A stretch of DNA of 58,679 nt from a plasmid. Location: the sequence record NC_009704.1. One strand, given 5' to 3'. Under the pieces are notes generated by a model. The model made no database searches and had not been told where the DNA came from. It was given only the letters and a program-made list of their open reading frames with translations. Shown here one piece after another: positions 18,434-39,631 of this stretch. Position numbers and translations under genes: made by a program. The stretch's first letter is position 1. The number at the start of each line of letters is the position of its first letter.

Positions 18434-20140
18434 ATGAAAATTAAATTAATAACTGCTTGTGTCATGGCGGCGCTGCTTTCTGGTTGCTCAATTGGCCGTA
18501 TTAATAAAGTAATAGACTCCGCGCAGTCAGATTCTGAAAAAGTCAGCAATATGATTGCAGAAACGGCAACTGTTAGACCGCCAGTTAAAATCCATGATGA
18601 GCAATGGATTAACCCTATTCCGATTAAGTCAGCAACAGCAGATATTCCGGCAGCAATGATTAATTGCGTGATCACTTATAAACCAGTACGGCCTCAAGAT
18701 GTGTATCAGTTCGGCCAGGACGTTACGCAGCAGTGCAATATTCCAGTTCGAATTTCACCTGATGCAGCCGCTATGTTATCAGGCAATAACAGCACTGGAG
18801 GGGGGGGACGGCCAACCAATCAAATGAGCAGCGTTCCAGCTCCGATTGTTCCCCCTGAAGCTAACGGCATGGTTCCACTACAGACGTTGGGAACCATGCA
18901 ACCAGGTAACAATGGTAGCGTGGCTTATAGCGGCGGTGTAGCCCGTAAAATTACAGATGTGGCATTCTCTGGCAACGTGGCACGTCTACTCGATATTGTC
19001 ACCTCTCGCCTTGGCGTGTCGTGGCGATATGCAAACGGTGAAATCACTATTTTCTATCTCCAAACTAAGCGATTTGATATCGATACGACTAATGCAAAAT
19101 ATACATTAGAAAATCAGCAAAAAAGTGGCTTATCCACTCAAAGCGGAAGCAATGGCACTGGTGAAAAATCAAGTGGGATATCTGGTACTAGCGGCTCTAA
19201 CACACTGCAAACAACTGAAATGTCGAATGATATCTATGGAGACATTCAAAAAACGGTTGAAAGTATGTTAACGCCAGGAGTAGGGCGAGTAAGCATAAAT
19301 CAAACCTCTGGTGTCGTTGTTGTAACCGATGTTCCCAACGTGGTGCGTAATATTGGTGAGTATCTGCAAGATGAGAACAGTAAACTTTCCAAACAGGTTT
19401 TATTTAAAGTTGTCATTTACACTATTACATCTGAAGTTTCTGATAATGTCGGAATTGATTGGGATATTATCTTTAAATCCCTATCAGGAAAATATGGTAT
19501 AAACCTTGCCAGCTCATCAGGATTAAGTACCGATTTGGCAAATGGGAGCTTTGAAATTTTAGATACTGCTACAGGTAAAGCAGCTCAATTTGCCGGTTCT
19601 CAGTTCATGCTTCAAGCATTGTCAAAACAAGCGAATGTAACAGATACAAAAACACTTAATTTGATGACCACAAACTTAGCTACGGCTGGTTTATTAATCG
19701 GTAAACAAACGACTTATTTACAGCGTTCATCTATAACTTCAATAGGTAGTGGTAATTCTTCTGAACCGGTTCAGTCATTAGAACCAGGACAAATAACCAC
19801 TGGTACTAATATTGTTATATTACCAAAAATATTAAATGATAATGAAAAGATGATGTTGACAATGATGTTAGATATAACGTCATTAAATAAATTAAGGAAA
19901 ATAGATACCGCAGATAAAAAATTAAGTATTGAAGGGCCGGATTCTGATTCCAGTTCTATTCCACAACGGATTTGGTTGAAACCAGGTGAAACAATCCTAA
20001 TGAGTGGCTTTGAACAGATTGTGAAGGATGGCAGTAAGCAGGGCATGGGTGATCCTAATAATATTATAATGGGCGGTAACATGTCGGGCAGTGATAAGAA
20101 ACAGTCCTTCGTCATTACTATTACGCCTATTCTTCGCTAA
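18434..20140 (+). CDS. pilN: PilN-like secretin lipoprotein (type IVb pilus)
   Basis: Lipobox LLSGC. 568 aa. Secretin-like C-terminal region. Size and order match R64 pilN. Confidence 0.6.
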   Translation: MKIKLITACVMAALLSGCSIGRINKVIDSAQSDSEKVSNMIAETATVRPPVKIHDEQWINPIPIKSATADIPAAMINCVITYKPVRPQDVYQFGQDVTQQCNIPVRISPDAAAMLSGNNSTGGGGRPTNQMSSVPAPIVPPEANGMVPLQTLGTMQPGNNGSVAYSGGVARKITDVAFSGNVARLLDIVTSRLGVSWRYANGEITIFYLQTKRFDIDTTNAKYTLENQQKSGLSTQSGSNGTGEKSSGISGTSGSNTLQTTEMSNDIYGDIQKTVESMLTPGVGRVSINQTSGVVVVTDVPNVVRNIGEYLQDENSKLSKQVLFKVVIYTITSEVSDNVGIDWDIIFKSLSGKYGINLASSSGLSTDLANGSFEILDTATGKAAQFAGSQFMLQALSKQANVTDTKTLNLMTTNLATAGLLIGKQTTYLQRSSITSIGSGNSSEPVQSLEPGQITTGTNIVILPKILNDNEKMMLTMMLDITSLNKLRKIDTADKKLSIEGPDSDSSSIPQRIWLKPGETILMSGFEQIVKDGSKQGMGDPNNIIMGGNMSGSDKKQSFVITITPILR

Positions 20141-25038: not shown

Positions 25039-25992
25039 GTGACAGAATCCTTGCTCAAAGATTCTGGCTTTGTTGATTTATATCTTGGTGATGATTATAC
25101 CGATATAAAAGGCATGATAGGGGCAAGCAATAGGCTTGCCCCTGCGCCAGAAATATTAAAAAACGATATCGAGAGTTTAAGACAACAATGTTTGAATTTT
25201 TATCATGCAGAAAAAAGGAATGAATTCTCTATTTTTTATGGTGAACGGTTGTACAGGGTAACAACAACTATTGATGTTTATCAAAATATTGGTTTTGTTA
25301 TCAGACAAACGCCGAATGAATTATTCACTCTACAAAAAGTAGGTCTATCATCTGATCTTATAAAGCTCATCAGCCAGAATAATAATTCTGGTTTAGTTTT
25401 AGTTTCAGGAAAAATGGGAGCAGGGAAGACAACCACGGCAGCGGCTATGATTTGCCACAGAATTAAGGAGAGCGGAAACCTTGGTGTTTCAATAGAAGAT
25501 CCGATAGAAACATTACTCGGTGGAAAACATGGTGATGGTCGCTGTATTCAACTGGAAGTCTCTGATAATGAGGGATACCCGCTAGCGATAAAGCGGGCCT
25601 TGAGAATGGGGGCCAATAATATCCTCATAGGGGAAATACGAGACGCGCAGACAGCCCATGAAGTCATGAAAGCATCTCTGAATGGTGCATTCATTGTTGC
25701 TACGATTCATGCGAATAATTGTATTGATGCAATTGAACGATATTCTATTTTCTGTAATGAAATAAACAGTAAAGCAAACTCGATAATTGCAAAATCACTT
25801 TTTATTGTCACTAATCAAGTGTTAATGCCATCTATATATGAAAGTAATATAAGAGGTTATACATGTACAGTGAATGGTTACGATATTCGCGCGAGTACAA
25901 CTATTCAGGCAAAAATCAGAGACGGAAATTTCCAAACCTTAAAAGATGAATTTGACAGCATCAATCAAAAGCAAATGCGACATTCTCTATAA
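25039..25992 (+). CDS. Small GspE/PilT-like ATPase (possible retraction-type ATPase)
   Basis: Walker A GKMGAGKTTT. Motifs IEDPIE and ILIGEIRD. 317 aa. GTG start. Confidence 0.55.
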   Translation: MTESLLKDSGFVDLYLGDDYTDIKGMIGASNRLAPAPEILKNDIESLRQQCLNFYHAEKRNEFSIFYGERLYRVTTTIDVYQNIGFVIRQTPNELFTLQKVGLSSDLIKLISQNNNSGLVLVSGKMGAGKTTTAAAMICHRIKESGNLGVSIEDPIETLLGGKHGDGRCIQLEVSDNEGYPLAIKRALRMGANNILIGEIRDAQTAHEVMKASLNGAFIVATIHANNCIDAIERYSIFCNEINSKANSIIAKSLFIVTNQVLMPSIYESNIRGYTCTVNGYDIRASTTIQAKIRDGNFQTLKDEFDSINQKQMRHSL

Positions 25993-26004
25993 TATGAGGT
26001 GGTA

Positions 26005-27261
26005 ATGAAAAAATTTAAAAAAGGGTTGGCGGCGATATCAGGGCAAACAATCGCTTTAATTGCTGGCCTAATTGTACTGGCAACAATTACCGTACCGGCA
26101 GTGAATCTGCTTCAACGTGACCAGTCATACAGCGTGGCGGCGAGTCACGCTAATCGTGTAGAGAAAGCCGTTAATAAATATATTCTTGAACAATCCGCTA
26201 TTGTTGGTGCGGGATCTACAGCCAGTAGTCCTTATACTATTGATGTTCCGTTGTTAATCAGTAAAGGGTATTTGCCTAGTGGCTTTGCCGCACAAAATAA
26301 TTTCTCAAGTACCTATAAAACGCTAGTTTTCCAACCTTCGACGCAAAAATTCCATAGCATGACCTTTCTTGATGGGGGAACTCAGCTAAGCATGAGCGCT
26401 GCCAGGAAGTTTGCGACACGAATTGGTGATAGTGGTGGCGTCATTGAAAACGGGGTTGCCAATGGCGTACAGGGCTTATGGAGCGAAAACCTATCAGCAT
26501 TCGGGGGGTTTAATCCAGGCGATGGCCATGTCGTGATCGCGGGGTTCTTCTCAAATGGCTCTGTGGTAAACGAGTATTTGTACCGTAAAGCCGTGCCTGG
26601 TCATCCAGAGCTTAATACTATGAGTACAGCGCTAAATATGGGCGCAAATGATATCAACGCCGTTCGTGATCTCAATGCGGCAGGTAATGCCGTGGTTCAA
26701 GGCAATATTACAGCAGGGAACACCGTTACGGCCACCGGTACAGTTAAAGCCGCTACCACGGACACAAGCGGAGAGACGTATACCGGCGGCTGGTTTCGAA
26801 CAAGGGGTGATACAGGTTGGTACTCTGAAAAGTGGGGCGGCGGTTGGCATATGACCGATGGAACTTGGCTAAGAGCGTATGGCGGTAAATCAATCTATAC
26901 CGCAGGTATTGTGCAAGCGGCAACGTTCCAGCCTGGGCAGGTAAGTGTTGTTAACACAGCATGTCCTGAAAGCGGGCGTATAAGTCGTGATGCGACTGGA
27001 GCCATACTGAGCTGTCAATCCGGTGTGTGGGCCACCAGTGGGAAAGTAGTGGTTATCAACGGCTATAACCCTACATGCCCTGCCAATAAAATTCCCGTGG
27101 CGCGCTATTGGACACAGGCAGGGGGAAGTAATTACGGCGATTATTGCTCACTACAAACAGGGTGGGCGGGAGTAACAACACCGAGTTGTGAGTCGTGTGC
27201 AAATTGGGAAAAGTGTCATATGGTGTACTCCCAAACTTGGTCTGCCACAGCTTGTAGCTGA
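26005..27261 (+). CDS. pilV: PilV-like minor pilin/adhesin
   Basis: AGGTGG ribosome-binding site before the ATG at 26005. Prepilin-like N-terminus KKGLAAISGQTIALIAGLIVLA. Large Gly-rich C-terminal domain. Confidence 0.5.
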   Translation: MKKFKKGLAAISGQTIALIAGLIVLATITVPAVNLLQRDQSYSVAASHANRVEKAVNKYILEQSAIVGAGSTASSPYTIDVPLLISKGYLPSGFAAQNNFSSTYKTLVFQPSTQKFHSMTFLDGGTQLSMSAARKFATRIGDSGGVIENGVANGVQGLWSENLSAFGGFNPGDGHVVIAGFFSNGSVVNEYLYRKAVPGHPELNTMSTALNMGANDINAVRDLNAAGNAVVQGNITAGNTVTATGTVKAATTDTSGETYTGGWFRTRGDTGWYSEKWGGGWHMTDGTWLRAYGGKSIYTAGIVQAATFQPGQVSVVNTACPESGRISRDATGAILSCQSGVWATSGKVVVINGYNPTCPANKIPVARYWTQAGGSNYGDYCSLQTGWAGVTTPSCESCANWEKCHMVYSQTWSATACS

Positions 27262-31144: not shown

Positions 31145-31149
31145 TTTCT

Positions 31150-31394
31150 ATTGATGGCATTTTTCAGCATCCGGAGCAGTACCAGGATAGTGTTATGCTG
31201 GCAATCGGTGCTGGCCAGCTGCGGCGTCAGTTTCAATTATGATAGCAATTACCGGTTGCAACATTTGCCAGCAATTTAATATCAGGTAATCAGCTGAAGA
31301 AGATACAACTGCCAGCATTACGGTGACTCAATGCTCGCTGCCGGTCGCAGAAATGCCAGCATTTCGCCTTAAAGACTTTCCTTTGGCGTGAAAC
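31150..31394 (-). repeat. Copy B of the ~240-bp repeat, inverted relative to copies A and C
   Basis: Its reverse complement aligns with 39377-39620 at about 90% identity along the whole length. Confidence 0.8.
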
Positions 31395-33229: not shown

Positions 33230-33255
33230 TTGGGTTTACGCGAAGAGTGCCAACC
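33230..33255 (+). repeat. Direct repeat 1 of 5 (TTGGGTTTACGCGAAGAGTGCCAAC)
   Basis: Member of a five-copy same-orientation family with consensus TTGGsTTTACsCnnAGAsTrCCAAA. Confidence 0.7.
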
Positions 33256-33377
33256 ATGTAGAATTTATCCCCTTAACCTAATATTTGAGAGTGAACGGTG
33301 GATTAATTTGGTAAGATTATAAACTGATAAAATTTATTTTTTAGATATTACGCAACAAAAACATCAATGGAGTAGTC

Positions 33378-33923
33378 ATGTTTATATGTGATGAGAAAAA
33401 AAACCTCAGTGTCTCTAACACCAAGTACATTAACTTAGCCTTTAAAGAAACAGAGTTTGTGGCTGATAATGATTATATGAAAAATCAGGCAGAGTTATTG
33501 GCGAGTCGCTTTACTGATGAAACATCCAGAACAGATATTATAATGTATGTAATTGATGTGATTGAATGTGCGGAAAAAAATAATTTCGACGTGACGGATA
33601 TGCTCCGTGTTTTCCACTTTCTTGCTGACAGGTTCGGGTTTGGTTATCAAGTAAATACGTTTGGTACAGAGCAACAAGTTACTGCATATAAGTATGCCTC
33701 CAGTTGTTACAATGAGATTGTCGTTGTCCCAATATCGAGAATCAAATATGTAAAACAACACGATAGAGTTATTAAGAAAAACGGCCTGTCACTTTGTCGA
33801 GTATCCATTGTCACTACTGATAATGAAGAATTTAAATTGCATATCGACGATCAAATTATATCCAGCTTGAAATGTGACGTTATTTTAAAATGTGCCGTAA
33901 AATTTATCGACCAGGCTTTATAA
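33378..33923 (+). CDS. Hypothetical protein (cassette 1)
   Basis: 181-aa ORF. No recognisable motifs. Confidence 0.35.
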   Translation: MFICDEKKNLSVSNTKYINLAFKETEFVADNDYMKNQAELLASRFTDETSRTDIIMYVIDVIECAEKNNFDVTDMLRVFHFLADRFGFGYQVNTFGTEQQVTAYKYASSCYNEIVVVPISRIKYVKQHDRVIKKNGLSLCRVSIVTTDNEEFKLHIDDQIISSLKCDVILKCAVKFIDQAL

Positions 33924-33963
33924 TTCCGCAATACGAATGCCGCATTTGGATAAAAAAAGTGTA

Positions 33964-33983
33964 CAGCCGGTATTCACCGGCTG
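33964..33983. terminator. Hairpin CAGCCGGT-attc-ACCGGCTG next to an A7/T7 tract
   Basis: Perfect 8-bp stem. The T-run lies on the minus-strand side. Confidence 0.4.
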
Positions 33984-34028
33984 GCATTCGCTAGCCGCCT
34001 TTCCCTGCTCTGCTCTTTCCTAATGACT

Positions 34029-34053
34029 TTGGGTTTACCCGCAGACTGCCAAA
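34029..34053 (+). repeat. Direct repeat 2 of 5 (TTGGGTTTACCCGCAGACTGCCAAA)
   Basis: Same family as repeat 1. Confidence 0.7.
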
Positions 34054-34066
34054 TCTGATTAAATCC

Positions 34067-34115
34067 TAGTATACTAGACGTTATTGACTGGTAACATAAT
34101 GGGAGTATACTAGAC
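34067..34115 (+). promoter_or_regulatory. Promoter with two TAGTATACTA palindromic operators (copy 1)
   Basis: -35 TTGACT (34084-34089), 16-bp spacer, -10 TATACT (34106-34111). Operators at 34067-34079 and 34104-34115. Confidence 0.55.
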
Positions 34116-34119
34116 AAAT

Positions 34120-34209
34120 ATGTCCAGTAGAAGAGAGTTGGTGACGGCACTACAGGCCATAGCAAACAGTAAAGGATGGACGTTTGAGACGTTGGCTGTT
34201 CGATGTTAG
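34120..34209 (+). pseudogene. Truncated (29-aa) paralogue of the 34854 HTH gene
   Basis: MSSRRELVTALQAIANSKGWTFETLAVRC* aligns with the first 29 aa of the 64-aa protein at 34854, then stops. Confidence 0.45.
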
Positions 34210-34384
34210 AAAGAAGAAAAATTTCTACACAGAAGTGAACTGATAGTTTATTAGTAATCCGTATATTCGAAATGGTATAACATTACGCCATGTATAATGA
34301 CAAGAATACTGAATTAGAGGCTCAATGTGAGAAGTTTCAGCCAGCGCTTAGACAGCATATTAATCATAACGTGATAAGGAGCCG

Positions 34385-34684
34385 TTGATGCAAAAAAATG
34401 AACCGTATGATCTAGCAATAGCGTTTATTTTGGAAAATGAAAGAACTTGTAATTTAAGCGATTCCGATCCAGAAAAAACAGATAAAAATGAATGTTTTTT
34501 ATTTGTGGCTGGCTATATCAAAGCGTTAAGTGACTTCAAATTAATAAACAAAGAGCAATCGATTGATCTGAGAAATAAAATGGGATATTTTGGTTCAATA
34601 CCGTCTGTTTTCTTGGTGGCAAAACCAACTGATTTAGAAGGCCGCTATGGTGATATTTTCCGCCAGAACCCTATAATAGATTGA
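34385..34684 (+). CDS. Hypothetical protein (99 aa)
   Basis: ORF. No recognisable motifs. Confidence 0.3.
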   Translation: MMQKNEPYDLAIAFILENERTCNLSDSDPEKTDKNECFLFVAGYIKALSDFKLINKEQSIDLRNKMGYFGSIPSVFLVAKPTDLEGRYGDIFRQNPIID

Positions 34685-34761
34685 TGGAAATTTCTCTTTT
34701 TCTGAGAATGATTTAATGAACGCCTCGTTAATCGGGGCTTTTTTACGTCTGCGTACTGGCC

Positions 34762-34786
34762 TTGGCTTTACCCGAAGAGTACCAAA
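34762..34786 (+). repeat. Direct repeat 3 of 5 (TTGGCTTTACCCGAAGAGTACCAAA)
   Basis: Same family. Confidence 0.7.
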
Positions 34787-34800
34787 TATGATTAAAACCC

Positions 34801-34849
34801 TAGTATACTAGACATTATTGACGGGTAAGAAAACAGGAGTATACTAGAC
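34801..34849 (+). promoter_or_regulatory. Promoter with two TAGTATACTA operators (copy 2)
   Basis: Operators at 34801-34813 and 34838-34849. -35 TTGACG at 34818-34823. -10 TATACT at 34840-34845. Confidence 0.55.
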
Positions 34850-34853
34850 AAAT

Positions 34854-35048
34854 ATGACTAGCAAGACAAAAGTGATTACGAAACTACAGGCAATAGTAAA
34901 CAGCAAGGGATGGACGTTTGAAGCATTGGCGGTACGTTGGGAAGTTTCACCCCGCCAGATGTCCAGGATTGCAGCCGCAGGTAAGCAGCGGGATATAGAC
35001 GCCGCTATGGGATTGCCAAATAAAGGTGTGACTCATAATGAAAATTGA
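34854..35048 (+). CDS. Small HTH DNA-binding protein (probable autorepressor)
   Basis: 64 aa. HTH-like segment TFEALAVRWEVSPRQMSRI. Preceded by the dual-operator promoter. Confidence 0.45.
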   Translation: MTSKTKVITKLQAIVNSKGWTFEALAVRWEVSPRQMSRIAAAGKQRDIDAAMGLPNKGVTHNEN

Positions 35049-35337
35049 AAATCCTCCTGAATCGTACATAACAAATCTAAAAAGCATACCGGCTTTTGAC
35101 GACTGGCTGTGGATGATTAATAAAAATGATAGGCTCCCGAGAGGTCAGTATTTCAAAGCGAGGCAGTATGCAAAAGAGCTTCTTATGCCGTCAAAAAATC
35201 AGGTATTTGAGGTATTTGACTTAAGAACAGTCAGAGCCTTTACGCCGCCAATAACCATTTCTCAAAGACGCGATGACTTTTATGAGGGCAACATGCTTAA
35301 AGTTTTGGATAGTCAGTCAGGGAAAAAACATGACTAA
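35038..35337 (+). CDS. Hypothetical protein (99 aa), translationally coupled to the HTH gene
   Basis: 11-nt overlap with the upstream gene. An antitoxin-toxin-like arrangement. Confidence 0.4.
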   Translation: MKIENPPESYITNLKSIPAFDDWLWMINKNDRLPRGQYFKARQYAKELLMPSKNQVFEVFDLRTVRAFTPPITISQRRDDFYEGNMLKVLDSQSGKKHD

Positions 35338-35376
35338 GTATGTCTTCGAATAAAAAGTATCAAGACGACGCTGTTA

Positions 35377-35859
35377 ATGGCTTGCCGGATATATCAGAGA
35401 GGACTGATGAAAAGAAAATACGTTAATTTGAAAAATATATTATTATTTGGTGCCGTTCTTTCCTCGATTTTTTGCTTGAGCGCATATGCCAAGGATCTCA
35501 ACTGTATTACACGCGCAGAGGCTGATTATGATGTACCTGCGGGGCTATTGAATGTCATGGCGGCTTATGAAGCGAAAAGAAATCAGCCTGTTGCCAATAA
35601 GTTATATGGCCCTATGCAGCTGCACTCTGTTGTAATACCTATGGCGGCGGAAGGTATTCATTCTACGGAACATGAGATTAAATATAATGACTGCCAAAAT
35701 TACCGCGCTGCCGCATGGTTATTAATGAATAGTTTTGGCGGCAATCTATATAGCGATATTTTTAACGCCGTTAATAATTATTACTACGGTTTTGGTAAAC
35801 AGAGTTATGGAGTGATCACCTTAAAGATAAAGGATATGTACCAGCACGAAAAACGGTAG
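35377..35859 (+). CDS. Secreted lytic-transglycosylase-like protein (TrbN paralogue)
   Basis: Signal peptide when started from MKRKY. Pattern E..YDVPAGLLNVMAAYEA...GPMQL...DCQNYRAAAWLL parallels TrbN in this window. Confidence 0.4.
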   Translation: MACRIYQRGLMKRKYVNLKNILLFGAVLSSIFCLSAYAKDLNCITRAEADYDVPAGLLNVMAAYEAKRNQPVANKLYGPMQLHSVVIPMAAEGIHSTEHEIKYNDCQNYRAAAWLLMNSFGGNLYSDIFNAVNNYYYGFGKQSYGVITLKIKDMYQHEKR

Positions 35860-35933
35860 CCCGAACAAACCGTGCTGGCGTTCGCCTGCTACTCACCTCT
35901 CCGGCCCCGCGCCTTTCTCTCCCGCTGGCCGGA

Positions 35934-35960
35934 TTGGGGTTTACCCTCAGAGTACCAAAA
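35934..35960 (+). repeat. Direct repeat 4 of 5 (TTGGGGTTTACCCTCAGAGTACCAAAA)
   Basis: Same family. Confidence 0.7.
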
Positions 35961-35964
35961 CACA

Positions 35965-35989
35965 AAAACCGCCCAAAATGGCGGCTTTA
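35965..35989. terminator. Bidirectional terminator hairpin AAAACCGCC-caaaat-GGCGGCTTT
   Basis: GC stem flanked by an A-run and a T-run. Lies between convergent genes. Confidence 0.55.
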
Positions 35990-36025
35990 CTGATTAAAGA
36001 AAGTAACTTATTAATTATGTGAGAG

Positions 36026-36691
36026 TTACCCCAACCAAGTGAAAGTGACGGCCATTATCGATGCCAGTGAATGAAGTAGTACGGGTAGCAGCAATCCCCC
36101 ACTTCGCATCCTTGCCCAAGTAAAGATAATGGACATCGATGTAATCAGAACAAACGTGCTTATGTTCTCATATTGGTTATGAATGAGAGAAAATAGCAGC
36201 GCGATAATGACTGCACCTAGCCACATTGTCCAGGCATGAGAAGACCGAAAAACGTTCAAAATCACGCCACGAAACACAATTTCTTCGTTGAAAGGTGCCA
36301 CAAGTAAAATAGTTAAAAATACCCCTGAAAGCTGTGCAAAAGGCTGATTAAGCAAATTCTGAACAAATTTTTCGGGTGCGGCACCAGTCAATTTACCGTA
36401 ACTGTATTCAGCAAAGTAAACCAGAACCACAGCTAAAATTGGCAATAATGAGGACTTTTGCAATACTTTTCCAAACCCTAATGGGGAAACCCACCGATGA
36501 TAAGGAACAAGCACTGCGAGAATAAATATCATACCGGCCATATGCGATATTAATAGATGATAATTCCCAAATCCGTTGACCGCTGCCCAGTAGCTTGAAT
36601 AAATTAATATAGAGAACCACCCCTTTGCAATAACGATTGCGGCAATGAGTACAATGGTGCTTTTTAATATTTTATTTTTAGTATTGAACAC
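36026..36691 (-). CDS. CPBP (CAAX protease/Abi, PF02517) family intramembrane metalloprotease
   Basis: Polytopic. Motifs EEIVFRG, FSLIHN and HSLAS. Confidence 0.7.
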   Translation of the reverse strand: MFNTKNKILKSTIVLIAAIVIAKGWFSILIYSSYWAAVNGFGNYHLLISHMAGMIFILAVLVPYHRWVSPLGFGKVLQKSSLLPILAVVLVYFAEYSYGKLTGAAPEKFVQNLLNQPFAQLSGVFLTILLVAPFNEEIVFRGVILNVFRSSHAWTMWLGAVIIALLFSLIHNQYENISTFVLITSMSIIFTWARMRSGGLLLPVLLHSLASIMAVTFTWLG

Positions 36692-36755
36692 TTTTTTTAC
36701 TTCTCCAATTCGCTAACCCTCTCCCCAAAGAGAGTTTATTTGGGGGTTGGAAATT

Positions 36756-37538
36756 TTAGTTTTCCAAATCCTTATTCATCTGCTTTTCCTCATGATATTT
36801 TATCGCCTCGCTGATCATGTCTTTCATCTCGGTCAAAAATATTTTTGTTGTATCAAATGCTTCAAGAACAGCGTTATAATCAAATTTTATTGAATCATTT
36901 CCCTCGCGGGTCTTTCCGTTTCGATGAACAATGTCGTTTCTTAATGTTGTCAGTACATCAATTTTAGTCGTATCAATATTTTTGTATTTTTTTATTTGGA
37001 GTATTGCTCTATACGTTCTTTCCACAATGGGGATGTCATGATATGTAATCCCTGTTAAATACTCCTGCACCGATTTACCAACGACATCCTCTTTATCAAT
37101 TAAATAAACCAGATTTATTTCTTTTTTGCGTAAATGTTCAATCTGATAAACAGCATAATTTCTGTATCGGTTATCTGATAAGACAATGCTTTTAATCATG
37201 TCGCCCAGGCAGCTTTCCATGATGGTGACGCAATAAGCTATTTGCATTTTATAAAAAGTTTCACTGGTATGCTCTTTCCCTTCGTCAAGAATTTCATCCA
37301 GTAAGGATATCGAGGATACATAAATATCAGTGTGGGGATTATTTTTCAGCCATTGCTGCTCTTCATATTCCTCGCGAGCCATGTCCTCCATAAAATCCTT
37401 ATAATTATCATACTCTTCCTCTAGCTCCTGCCACTCGTCTGAATCATTTCCCAGGTCAGGATCAGATAATCTTGCACGTATCCACGCTTCACGGCGGTTT
37501 TCCTCTTCATCCTCAAACCATTGCTTGGTACTGCTCAT
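36756..37538 (-). CDS. Hypothetical acidic protein with a possible HEPN-like Rx4H motif
   Basis: 260 aa. LRNDIVHRNG near the C-terminus. Acidic N-terminus. Confidence 0.3.
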   Translation of the reverse strand: MSSTKQWFEDEEENRREAWIRARLSDPDLGNDSDEWQELEEEYDNYKDFMEDMAREEYEEQQWLKNNPHTDIYVSSISLLDEILDEGKEHTSETFYKMQIAYCVTIMESCLGDMIKSIVLSDNRYRNYAVYQIEHLRKKEINLVYLIDKEDVVGKSVQEYLTGITYHDIPIVERTYRAILQIKKYKNIDTTKIDVLTTLRNDIVHRNGKTREGNDSIKFDYNAVLEAFDTTKIFLTEMKDMISEAIKYHEEKQMNKDLEN

Positions 37539-37548
37539 TTAGTGCTCC

Positions 37549-38265
37549 TTATATTGTGTCTGTTATAAAGTCGTTTTCTTTAATAGTTTTAATAAACAGC
37601 TTATAGTTCTCTATCATAACCGCCGATGTTTCACACATTTCACTCTGGTACTTTCTATATGTCTTTTCACTTTTAGGGTTATTTCTCCAGTCATAAGGCA
37701 GGTCAAGTCTTAAGGGTTCTCTTTCTGGATGGTCTACCGTCAAAAATGGTGTAAGACTGTTATAGAAAGCAGTGATTGCGATAATAAAGTTATCTTTCAC
37801 TTCATTAACAGCGTAATTATATAACCTATAATTTTCATCCCTGTATTTTCCTGCCTCATCTAAATTACGGGCAAATTGATATGTCATGCCGACAATAGAA
37901 CTTTGCTCGGCTTCATTAAGGGTGGCTTCATAAGGCAGGAGCGTAAGTATTTCTTCAATGATATTTAAATCATGCGCTTTCTTTTTTTCTTCAATACCCG
38001 ATTCTGTTTTTGCATGGGAAATATGATTGATCGTAGTGATGTTCAGGTCACGACCGGCCTGATTGATATTGCCATTGTTATTTTTATTTGTTTGCCTGAG
38101 TTTATATTTTTTGATTATTTTGGGCGCACCTATTATCCCTATAACAGAAATACCCAATCCAATAATAGAAATACCCCATCCCTGATAGGTCGCCCAATCA
38201 GTCCCGATGTGTGTGTTCAGCCAGTGAAGCATAGTCATTCCCGACGAAATAAAGATGCCTGTCAT
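37549..38265 (-). CDS. Membrane-anchored hypothetical protein (2 TM helices plus cytoplasmic domain)
   Basis: First gene of the three-gene minus-strand operon. Confidence 0.35.
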   Translation of the reverse strand: MTGIFISSGMTMLHWLNTHIGTDWATYQGWGISIIGLGISVIGIIGAPKIIKKYKLRQTNKNNNGNINQAGRDLNITTINHISHAKTESGIEEKKKAHDLNIIEEILTLLPYEATLNEAEQSSIVGMTYQFARNLDEAGKYRDENYRLYNYAVNEVKDNFIIAITAFYNSLTPFLTVDHPEREPLRLDLPYDWRNNPKSEKTYRKYQSEMCETSAVMIENYKLFIKTIKENDFITDTI

Positions 38266-38316
38266 GATAGCAGAAAGGCGGCGTTGCGACTCGGTGTGTC
38301 ACCGCTGCCGCATGAC

Positions 38317-38341
38317 TTGGCTTTACGCGGAGACTGCCAAA
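38317..38341 (+). repeat. Direct repeat 5 of 5 (TTGGCTTTACGCGGAGACTGCCAAA)
   Basis: Same family. About 240 bp upstream of the recombinase gene. Confidence 0.7.
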
Positions 38342-38578
38342 CTCGGACGAGTCCCCTACTCCCGCCCTGAATGTCTGCTATAATCCTTTCTGTCTCAGGG
38401 GCTTGCATACCGCCAGAGACAGACAATCGGGGCGTGTCGGGCGCGTTACGCTCCGATTGTCACCCTTTTTTACTTGGCTTTTCCCCCCTATAGCGAAAAC
38501 TCCCAACCGTTCCGATTTTTATCGGGTATTTATTGTGATCGTACATCGACCTGAATTGCGTCAAAATAGTCTCATTGA

Positions 38579-39370
38579 GTGCAAATTGCGGATAATGAAA
38601 TGTCGAGCATCATCCCTCACGATTTGGGGCAGATTTCACGTAGCGCGATCCGCGCACCGGCCCCGCTGTTTAGTTACGGTCATGCCCTGGCACTGCGTGA
38701 AAAAGTGCTGGCCTCCGGTGATGCGGAATTGCCGCTCTATCTGCTGGCCCCCGAAGTCACAGTGTTACTTTCCTATCTGCCTGACTTGCGGCAACGGCTG
38801 CTGATCGAAACCTTGTGGAACACCGGCGCACGATTAAATGAAGCGCTGGCCCTGACGCCAGCCTGTTTTCACATCGAGGGCGACTCGCCGTTTGTGGTAC
38901 TGAAGACACTGAAGCAACGGCAAAAAGGACGGGGCCGCCCGAAAGAGGGCCAGACACTGAAACGCATCGTGCCGCTGCTCGATGAAAACTATGTGCGCCT
39001 GGTACACGAATACCTGGCTACGTTTCGGCCCAAGAAATATGCACCGCTGTGGGTGAACGAGCACGGCGACACCATCAGTGATGAAACCCCGCGCACCTGG
39101 TTACGTGCTGCTGTGACACGCGCAAACCGTGACAGTGTAACGTTTAGTCTGCCGGTGATCACCCCGAAAACCTTTCGGCACTCGTTCGCCATGCATTTAG
39201 TGCAAAGCGGTGTGGCCTTTAAAGTGGTGCAAACCTTCATGGGCCACAAGGACGCCGCCAGTACCGAAGTGTATACGCGAATATTTGCGCTGGATGTGGG
39301 GGCGCAGTATGGGGTGAAGTTCAGTATGGCAGCGGCTGATGCAATGGCACTGGTGCGCCGTAGGTCTTGA
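38579..39370 (+). CDS. Tyrosine recombinase (short, FimB/FimE-like architecture)
   Basis: Box I ...TGARLNEALAL. Box II TFRHSFAMHLVQSG...GHKDAASTEVYTRI (the R, H-x-x-R and Y residues). The start may be internal. Confidence 0.75.
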   Translation: MQIADNEMSSIIPHDLGQISRSAIRAPAPLFSYGHALALREKVLASGDAELPLYLLAPEVTVLLSYLPDLRQRLLIETLWNTGARLNEALALTPACFHIEGDSPFVVLKTLKQRQKGRGRPKEGQTLKRIVPLLDENYVRLVHEYLATFRPKKYAPLWVNEHGDTISDETPRTWLRAAVTRANRDSVTFSLPVITPKTFRHSFAMHLVQSGVAFKVVQTFMGHKDAASTEVYTRIFALDVGAQYGVKFSMAAADAMALVRRRS

Positions 39371-39376
39371 CGGAAT

Positions 39377-39620
39377 GTTTACGCCAAGGAAAAAACTCTA
39401 AGAGGTAATGCTGGCATTTCTGCGACCGACAACGGGCATTGAGTCACCGTAATGCTGGCAGTTGTATCTTCTTCAGTTGATTACCTGGTATTAAATTGCT
39501 GGCAAATGTTGCAACCGGTAATTGCTATCATAATTGAAACTGGCGCCGCAGCTGGCCAACACCGATTGCCAGCATAACACTATCCTGGTACTGCTCCGGA
39601 TGCTGAAAAATGCCATCAAT
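39377..39620 (+). repeat. Copy C of the ~240-bp repeat
   Basis: Begins 7 bp after the recombinase stop. Submotifs ATGCTGGCA x2, TTGCTGGCA and inverted TGCCAGCAT. Confidence 0.8.
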
Positions 39621-39631
39621 AACTCATATAA

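Follow-up and report, generated by a model that had tools for sequence, protein, structure and literature searches.

The ResD recombinase and its site rfsF, known from plasmid F, are treated as a plasmid site-specific recombination system for multimer resolution, and rfsF has been described as a point at which regions are swapped in IncI1 and IncR plasmids (PMC8004404, PMC9412624). Here we analyze a conjugative Yersinia plasmid (NC_009704.1; the whole stretch of 58,679 nucleotides is called the window), whose nearest relative is Y. massiliensis CP028489, typed MOBP/MPF_T, and in which five co-oriented repeats of 25 bp separate small gene modules upstream of a gene for a ResD-family tyrosine recombinase. 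Comparison of related plasmids makes it probable that the plasmid's own recombinase uses these repeats as its core recombination sites and that they are the equivalent of F rfsF. A preliminary description of the locus had proposed an array of shuffled cassettes, integron-like or pdif-like in architecture and bounded by an unrelated site, and every comparative test that we ran supported that proposal. Literature searches of open-access scope, with older subscription papers on rfsF and on crs (the site of the Rsd/crs system of Salmonella virulence plasmids) lying outside, returned neither an account of arrays like these nor one of the motif.

The pattern TTGGSTTTACSCNNAGASTRCCAAA matched the 58.7-kb window exactly five times when up to three mismatches were allowed, always on the + strand as first described; shuffled sequences gave a mean of 0.01 matches, and none of 100 shuffles reached five. 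A scan of the whole window at five mismatches found no copy beyond these. The sites occupy 33230..33254 (site 1, the distal copy; TTGGGTTTACGCGAAGAGTGCCAAC), 34029..34053 (site 2; TTGGGTTTACCCGCAGACTGCCAAA), 34762..34786 (site 3; TTGGCTTTACCCGAAGAGTACCAAA), 35935..35959 (site 4; TGGGGTTTACCCTCAGAGTACCAAA), and 38317..38341 (site 5; TTGGCTTTACGCGGAGACTGCCAAA), the last being the recombinase-proximal 'platform' site, or site I, which lies 283 bp upstream of the recombinase ATG. Four of the starts reported earlier stand, whereas the fourth copy, which begins TGGGG or else has one extra G, is better registered at 35935 than at 35934. Site-to-site distances of 799, 733, 1173, and 2382 bp match the module lengths of 0.8, 0.7, 1.2, and 2.4 kb previously given, and all five copies do lie between plausible genes. 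The additional claim that each copy sits directly upstream of a module promoter is clear for copies 2 and 3 only and fails as a general rule. Copies 2 and 3 open two paralogous modules, with promoters TTGACT/TATACT and TTGACG/TATACT, and copy 5 is upstream of the TATAAT of the recombinase gene; copy 1 merely overlaps a weak 9/12 promoter match, and the element next to copy 4 is the terminator of a convergent minus-strand operon. Promoter-like matches across the region numbered 20 compared to 17.6 expected from shuffles, which is no excess.

The recombinase gene (38600..39370, + strand) is intact and encodes a protein of 256 aa (Pfam Phage_integrase, E = 2e-20), which consists of a catalytic domain, with motifs ARLNEAL, KTFRHS, GHKD, and EVYT, and only about 50 N-terminal residues. 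By BLASTP, this protein is 46% identical to F-plasmid ResD over 248 aa, nearly its full length (E = 1e-67). Its scores are far below the cut-offs for XerC/D and integron integrases (58.4 bits against TIGR02249, cut-off 265; 42.9 against PRK15417, cut-off 435), with only the C-terminal catalytic motif matching. Recombinases that are 94–99% identical to it are encoded by 15 Yersinia plasmids of at least three backbones, and PLSDB contains homologues on more than 5000 enterobacterial plasmids, with 57% identity for those of the IncL/M pOXA-48 type; an exact-protein look-up returned only short contigs identical to the window. Site I is always ~283 bp upstream of the recombinase gene, within a block that is 91–98% identical among plasmids of at least three backbone types.

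We sorted all pairs of sites by the flank that they share. Pairs sharing only the left flank (n = 34) mismatched in at most 17% of cases at positions 1–15 and in up to 58% at positions 16–25. Pairs sharing only the right flank (n = 35) mismatched in 51–62% of cases at positions 5 and 11–14 and in 0–2% at positions 16, 17, and 19–25, with position 18 following two sub-types of platform flank. Thus, ancestry switches between positions 15 and 16, that is, at TTGGSTTTACSCNNA|GASTRCCAAA, and with the junction fixed there a module starts with GASTRCCAAA and ends with a pyrimidine tract followed by TTGGSTTTACSCNNA. The variable centre of the site always goes with the upstream module, the right half of the platform site occurs with five or more distinct left halves, and the left half belonging to one recurrent module (module E, below) is found in at least three right contexts. 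These left/right hybrids with a fixed junction, together with a recombinase gene 283 bp downstream of the last copy, bear out the initial suggestion of a recombinase core site.

Each site consists of a 14-bp centre enclosed by two outer arms in inverted orientation, TTGGS and SCCAA, with a pyrimidine-rich tract of ~20 nt on the left. Unrelated module ends have this tract in common (pyrimidine fraction of 0.74 at −20 to −11 in 30 non-redundant flanks), and right flanks showed no pyrimidine bias. The tract suggests selection on the module-borne half of the site, and because it is shared, the functional module-borne part is probably longer than 25 bp. Recombinase homologues at 43–76% identity in Rahnella, Serratia, Klebsiella, Pantoea, Erwinia, Providencia, other genera, and plasmid F have one upstream site with the geometry T + 5-bp arm + 14-bp centre + inverted arm + A. 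The arms of these sites co-vary across recombinase clades (TTGGC/GCCAA, TGGGG/CCCCA, TAGGG/CCCTA, TGCGG/CCGCA, TTCCG/CGGAA, and TTCGG/CCGAA), and plasmid F has ATCCG/CGGAT arms upstream of ccdAB-resD, within the palindrome GATCCG-N14-CGGATC upstream of ccdA, which from its map position we take to be rfsF itself. The weak inverted symmetry first noted at the repeat ends is therefore real, as the arms change in step from clade to clade, and such paired changes would be expected of a dimer-bound core site co-evolving with its recombinase. If the arms are centred on position 12.5, then the spacer would be the 6-bp CSCNNA (positions 10–15) and 15|16 would be the point of bottom-strand cleavage. Single-strand DNA folds of the sites with 15 nt on either side were no better than those of shuffled sequences (z = −0.2 to +0.9), and attC-like or terminator-like folding of the sites was rejected because there was no fold signal. 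The window contains no dif-like sequence at up to three mismatches and one two-mismatch match to the sfx core pattern, which lies elsewhere and is at chance level, in keeping with the earlier statement that the repeat resembles neither attC, dif, nor sfx.

The preliminary description had named as its own check a search of related plasmids for the same repeat around different cargo, and we found such arrays. We sampled the recombinase neighbourhoods of 13 Yersinia plasmids of four backbone typings, namely MOBP/MPF_T, MOBF/MPF_F (pYE854-like), rep_cluster_2307, and rep_cluster_891, at a scan tolerance of up to five mismatches. These plasmids contain 52 sites, with up to nine per array, and every one of the 52 is co-oriented with the recombinase gene and upstream of that gene or of its platform remnant; no site was found in 20 kb downstream of the recombinase, where that stretch was fetched. 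The window has five sites, Y. bercovieri CP124241 has nine across 18.4 kb, Y. ruckeri pWKY has nine, pYR9 has seven, Y. massiliensis CP054047 has six, pYPSE1-3 has five, pLT has three in the part fetched, p17Y0414.1 and Y. frederiksenii CP009363 have two each, and other plasmids have one. Among about 45 other loci, the 5-mismatch scan matched only single sites upstream of three recombinase homologues, and around distant ResD homologues (28 genome loci, pOXA-48, and F) we recognized single sites or none and no arrays. Modules in the Yersinia arrays range from 305 bp to about 7 kb, have their own promoters, and stand in either orientation. Their annotated cargo includes restriction endonucleases, Abi, HEPN, toxin-antitoxin pairs with RelB/DinJ antitoxins among them, Hcp, PAAR, phospholipase D, and a TcdA/TcdB-like glycosyltransferase toxin with HlyD/ABC exporters, which suggests a role in conflict involving plasmids, phages, and competitors in Yersinia.

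Breaks in homology between these plasmids fall at the sites. For ten plasmids with different backbones, similarity to the window begins only at 38315–38317 and runs through site 5, the leader that follows it, and the recombinase gene to end at 39383, and in two plasmids homology to the window extends only up to 38340/38341. Matches to Y. ruckeri pLT and CP133441 begin exactly at 34029 (site 2), and those to loci L001 and L002 begin at 35934 (site 4). In L001, which has the closest backbone, the left flank of site 2 is joined to the right flank of site 4 via one degenerate site; relative to L001, the window therefore has two additional modules, which sites 2, 3, and 4 delimit. At the other end of the array, the left flank of site 1, the remnant end of a RelB/DinJ-antitoxin module, is together with site 1 itself 100% identical to pYR9 over 81 bp (L003:10871-10951), and homology ends where the site ends.

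An all-against-all comparison of inter-site segments identified modules shared end to end between plasmids, including module A (1378 bp, 94% identity), module D (305 bp, 87–98% identity, three plasmids), and the segment L051:15876-17233, which corresponds to L054:15454-16812 at 97% identity. Module E, which encodes a restriction enzyme, occurs in L002, L051, and L052, and the protein that it encodes is also found in pFORC2. The order of modules is A-B-C-D-recombinase in pYR9, A-D-E-recombinase in Y. bercovieri CP124241, and HEPN-F-D-E followed by a truncated platform in Y. massiliensis CP054047. In CP124241, the site between A and D combines the left half and flank of the pYR9 A|B site with the right half and flank of the pYR9 C|D site, exactly as would be expected of a site-specific deletion of B-C. 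Modules of the window recur as well: module 4 (described below) lies, whole or in part, between sites in L001, L002, L052, and L054 with differing neighbours, and module 3 shares homology at its start with pYR9 L003:10927-11189 and with pLT from L056:1155 onwards. Homology breakpoints exactly at the repeats and identical modules in differing orders thus agree with the earlier view of the repeats as cassette boundaries. Across these plasmids, the comparisons show that a conserved site accompanies a ResD-family gene, that arrays are co-oriented, that sites are hybrids whose junction is fixed, and that modules are gained, lost, and reordered at them, and we infer that the recombinase catalyzed these module events.

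Site I is followed by a leader (38342..38599, + strand) that is conserved in an alignment of 10 plasmids and leads into the recombinase gene. This leader contains a promoter element, TATAAT (38379-38384), upstream of the recombinase gene and two conserved hairpins (38392-38420 and 38422-38461), in which 14 of the 37 predicted pairs stay paired via changes on both sides in the 10 plasmids. The second hairpin, which is followed by a T-run in the clade with recombinases of at least 94% identity, looks like a terminator, attenuator, or small RNA; a search of Rfam with the part of the window between 30.5 and 40 kb returned nothing relevant and no match for the leader hairpins. A second site-like element, site II (TTGGCTTTTCCCCCCTATAGCGAAAACTCCCAA; 38474-38506, + strand), is located ~95–125 bp upstream of the recombinase ATG, is conserved as far as the 62% pYV homologue, and may be an autoregulatory or accessory binding site. 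The leader as a whole may function in autoregulation or attenuation.

A mechanism that would account for the arrays starts from an ancestral state with one site (site I) upstream of the gene, at which the enzyme would have resolved plasmid multimers. In the Yersinia clade, the same reaction with sites on other molecules, which could be other plasmids or excised circles, would have assembled modules upstream of the recombinase gene into an array that runs in one direction. One recombinase monomer would bind each 9-bp arm around the 6-bp spacer CSCNNA. As spacers differ but always remain with the left partner, one pair of strand exchanges at the right-hand edge of the spacer probably defines the recombinants; replication or repair would then complete the Holliday junction, as happens in integron or XerC-only reactions. 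Where two direct sites recombine, the excised product would be a circle with one complete site that is able to re-integrate, and the uniform orientation of the sites would follow because re-integration always gives direct repeats. More tentatively, and at somewhat less than an even chance, we suggest that these arrays constitute a third kind of cassette platform after integrons and pdif modules, in which a recruited ResD resolvase, active today and acting in trans, exchanges modules of self-expressed double-stranded DNA at 15|16. According to this extended proposal, the recombinase would capture, excise, and reshuffle modules, many with defence, toxin, or addiction annotations, on conjugative Yersinia plasmids through 25-bp sites that tolerate different spacers, and arrays without the enzyme would be served in trans.

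Several points weigh against the repeats as working sites of this recombinase. The case for recombination is comparative rather than experimental, and the 69 informative pairs in the crossover analysis are phylogenetically non-independent. The recombinase has Lys (KTFRHS) at the first His of the HxxR motif, which aligns with HTFRHS in F ResD, and most family members carry His at this position. The persistence of arrays needs explaining, because direct repeats recognized by an active resolvase should delete the intervening DNA. The five spacers in the window all differ, and we considered whether spacer heterology protects arrays but rejected this idea, as identical centres were found in 5 of 46 within-array pairs compared to 4.3 expected (eight arrays); low or attenuated expression of the recombinase or a requirement for the leader are possible reasons for stability. 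About 40% of sites have 3–5 mismatches and one (L001:6080) has a 1-bp deletion, so part of each array may be a decaying fossil. No tyrosine recombinase was found in the 41 kb fetched for L052, which keeps a platform (25790-26010) cut ~80 bp short of the ATG, or in the 21 kb fetched for L056. Finally, we found arrays in Yersinia only, with homologues elsewhere having one site within 10 kb, and a metagenome motif scan yielded 12 isolated matches and no arrays, which is about chance level (by a rough estimate of a few tens).

Some of these points would also suit an explanation in which the sites are passive scars, with the recombinase acting only as a multimer resolvase, the extra sites left over from rare events in which different plasmids cointegrated at resolution sites, followed by unrelated deletions, the modules not being mobile units, and the array having no capture function. 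Such a history would involve the same chemistry as proposed above and would differ only in frequency and selection. It accords with the single site that is the norm for the family, with reports that IncI1 and IncR plasmids exchange large regions at rfsF (PMC8004404, PMC9412624), with the degeneracy of many sites, with the persistence of arrays in stretches where no recombinase was found (L052 and L056), and with the absence of any sign of selection for differing spacers within arrays. Scars of this kind would not, however, be expected to delimit small and discrete modules, down to 305 bp, and mini-units of 22 and 61 bp between paired sites, nor to number up to nine co-oriented sites per plasmid; modules also recur in different orders with precise hybrid sites, and the pyrimidine tract common to unrelated module ends suggests selection on the module-borne half. 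On balance, we regard a purely passive origin as unlikely.

Two other explanations assign the repeats to different proteins or functions. If the repeats were operators, bound by a transcription factor (the recombinase as repressor, or the helix-turn-helix (HTH)-like protein encoded in the array) that co-regulates promoters, then recombination would be incidental. F protein D has been reported to repress its own transcription, good promoters follow copies 2 and 3 at a distance of ~30 bp, and the recombinase TATAAT is downstream of copy 5. Copy 4, however, is next to the terminator at the 3′ end of a convergent operon, the region has no excess of promoter-like matches, and the HTH modules have distinct palindromic operators of their own, TAGTATACTA; regulation would predict neither homology breakpoints, hybrid ancestry, nor uniform orientation, and we consider this explanation very improbable. 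Even less credence, close to none, is given to the idea that the repeats are dif-like sites for the chromosomal XerC/XerD recombinases, as in Acinetobacter pdif modules. Plasmid modules bounded by short sites do resemble the pdif architecture, but dif-like sequence is lacking in the window even at three mismatches, 5-bp arms with a 14-bp centre are not an 11-6-11 arrangement, the sites are all direct rather than alternating, their arms co-vary with the clade of the plasmid-encoded recombinase, and the site is physically tied to the recombinase gene across backbones. Core sites of the ResD-family enzyme remain our preferred interpretation of the repeats.

The modules of the window carry varied cargo. 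Module 1 (33255..34028, + strand) contains one 181-aa open reading frame (ORF; 33378-33923) of no detectable family. Module 2 (34054..34761, + strand) has a promoter with two TAGTATACTA palindromes, a truncated regulator-like gene of 29 aa (34120-34209), and a 99-aa ORF (34385-34684), and module 3 (34787..35934, + strand) has the same arrangement of promoter and palindromes, an intact 64-aa gene (34854-35048), a 99-aa ORF (35038-35337), and a third ORF (35377-35859, + strand) for a secreted protein of 150/160 aa. The starts of modules 2 and 3 are 79% identical over about 150 bp, in agreement with the earlier claim of a truncated and an intact copy of one small gene (29 versus 64 aa); the duplication is real, whereas for the HTH label Pfam gave only hits below threshold (E = 0.017–0.044). 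In both modules the promoter is flanked by two copies of the perfect palindrome (34065-34117 and 34799-34851), and the palindrome probably serves the 64-aa HTH-like protein as its operator. Module 4 (35960..38316, − strand) is a three-gene operon with a terminator at 35988-35965 and encodes a membrane protein of 238 aa (37549-38265), a HEPN-like protein of 260 aa (36756-37538), and a CAAX/Rce1-like protease of 221 aa (36026-36691), all on the − strand. The CPBP assignment previously made for this protease is confirmed (E = 3e-17), the HEPN-like assignment has a match that is sub-threshold (25.5 bits compared to a cut-off of 28.4), and the 'lytic transglycosylase' once listed among the cargo has no support in Pfam, PHROG, or NCBIfam. 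Searches of the cargo with PADLOC, PHROGs, and NCBIfam returned essentially nothing besides the recombinase.

The array lies between an ssb gene and a minus-strand gene for a 994-aa protein, whose counterpart in CP028489 is annotated as a zincin-like metallopeptidase-domain protein. Array and recombinase gene are enclosed, in an 8-kb interval, by a 244-nt inverted repeat (31149-31392 / 39378-39621; 93% complementary), each arm of which contains 4–5 copies of TGCTGGCA. This repeat could permit inversion of the segment or serve as a protein-binding array; its identification as a widespread leading-region single-strand promoter/ssi element was rejected, as it occurs in one other plasmid only (CP028489) and its fold is not significant.

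Other features were observed in the related arrays. Pairs of sites 47 or 86 bp apart, with inserts of 22 or 61 bp, form 'mini-cassettes' that recur in several plasmids (47 bp, L002 1716/1763, L054 23726/23773, and L003 7835/7882; 86 bp, L003 6618/6704 and L054 15368/15454). In Y. ruckeri SC09, the array on pLT coexists with the enzyme-bearing plasmid pWKY. In L052 and L056 (2895-4537), both rep_cluster_2307, a serine recombinase gene occupies the position of the tyrosine recombinase gene. Tn3-family transposons are located directly beside sites in L073 (pFORC2; 1530-1545 and 19990-20001) and L002 (3334/10001). In pFORC2/pYE854, such a transposon lies one base away from the proximal site, on its left side, has a target duplication (TTGCT), and carries 12 kb of phosphotransferase-system (PTS)/polysaccharide-lyase cargo, and in pYPSE1-3 another lies 57 bp to the right of the counterpart of window site 4.

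Our best reading is that the Yersinia array is a multimer-resolution system that grew into a cassette array in one clade of plasmids and is so far confined to Yersinia. If the array is active, then a housekeeping enzyme that is common on plasmids can evolve into a device for capturing genes. The same conclusion, if true, would provide a concrete mechanism for the module-by-module mosaicism of plasmid accessory regions and a simple pair of recombinase and site, with predicted tolerance of spacer differences, that could be used as a tool. It also offers a template with which arrays around other resolvases can be sought, namely a short co-oriented site, a hybrid junction, and an adjacent recombinase gene.

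How, then, do these arrays compare with known systems? Like integrons, they have a tyrosine recombinase gene beside a primary site, a one-directional array of cassettes with most of the site at one cassette end, and a fixed crossover that makes every site a hybrid; arrays without an integrase are possible, as in clusters of attC sites lacking integron integrases (CALINs), and the cargo is rich in genes of toxin-antitoxin and defence type. Unlike integrons, the recombinase is not IntI, the sites are 25-bp duplex-type cores rather than attC imperfect palindromes of 57–141 bp that recombine as folded single strands, the array precedes the recombinase gene and runs in its direction instead of diverging from it, and modules have their own promoters, lie in either orientation, and can contain several genes and reach ~7 kb. 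Thus, although the array has a fixed crossover, it is not an integron, because neither its recombinase nor its sites are those of one. Acinetobacter pdif modules are similar in that multi-gene plasmid modules with their own promoters are bounded by short tyrosine-recombinase sites and shuffled between plasmids. However, pdif sites are XerC/XerD sites (11-6-11) of alternating orientation that are used by host enzymes, whereas the Yersinia sites are unrelated to dif, have the same orientation in 52 of 52 cases, and are associated with a dedicated plasmid recombinase. The R64 shufflon (Rci/sfx) also combines a plasmid tyrosine recombinase with multiple short asymmetric sites, and the sequence GTGCCAA, which is part of the sfx core, occurs at positions 18–24 of many Yersinia sites, which may be coincidence; sfx sites, however, are inverted and drive inversions inside pilV, and Rci is a larger and different protein, whereas the Yersinia repeats are direct only. 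The closest parallels are ResD/rfsF of F and Rsd/crs of Salmonella virulence plasmids, which share with the Yersinia locus a small homologous recombinase with a short N-terminus and a site upstream of the gene or operon, and, for ResD/rfsF, a site geometry of 5–6-bp inverted arms and a 14-bp centre. Compared to this family, the locus has the homologous recombinase and the cognate upstream site (site 5, at −283) but not the single site per replicon, as the window has five and its relatives as many as nine. A replicon of the known systems has a single site, and these systems are described as resolvases, whereas the window and its relatives reach 5 to 9 co-oriented sites, which delimit exchangeable modules.

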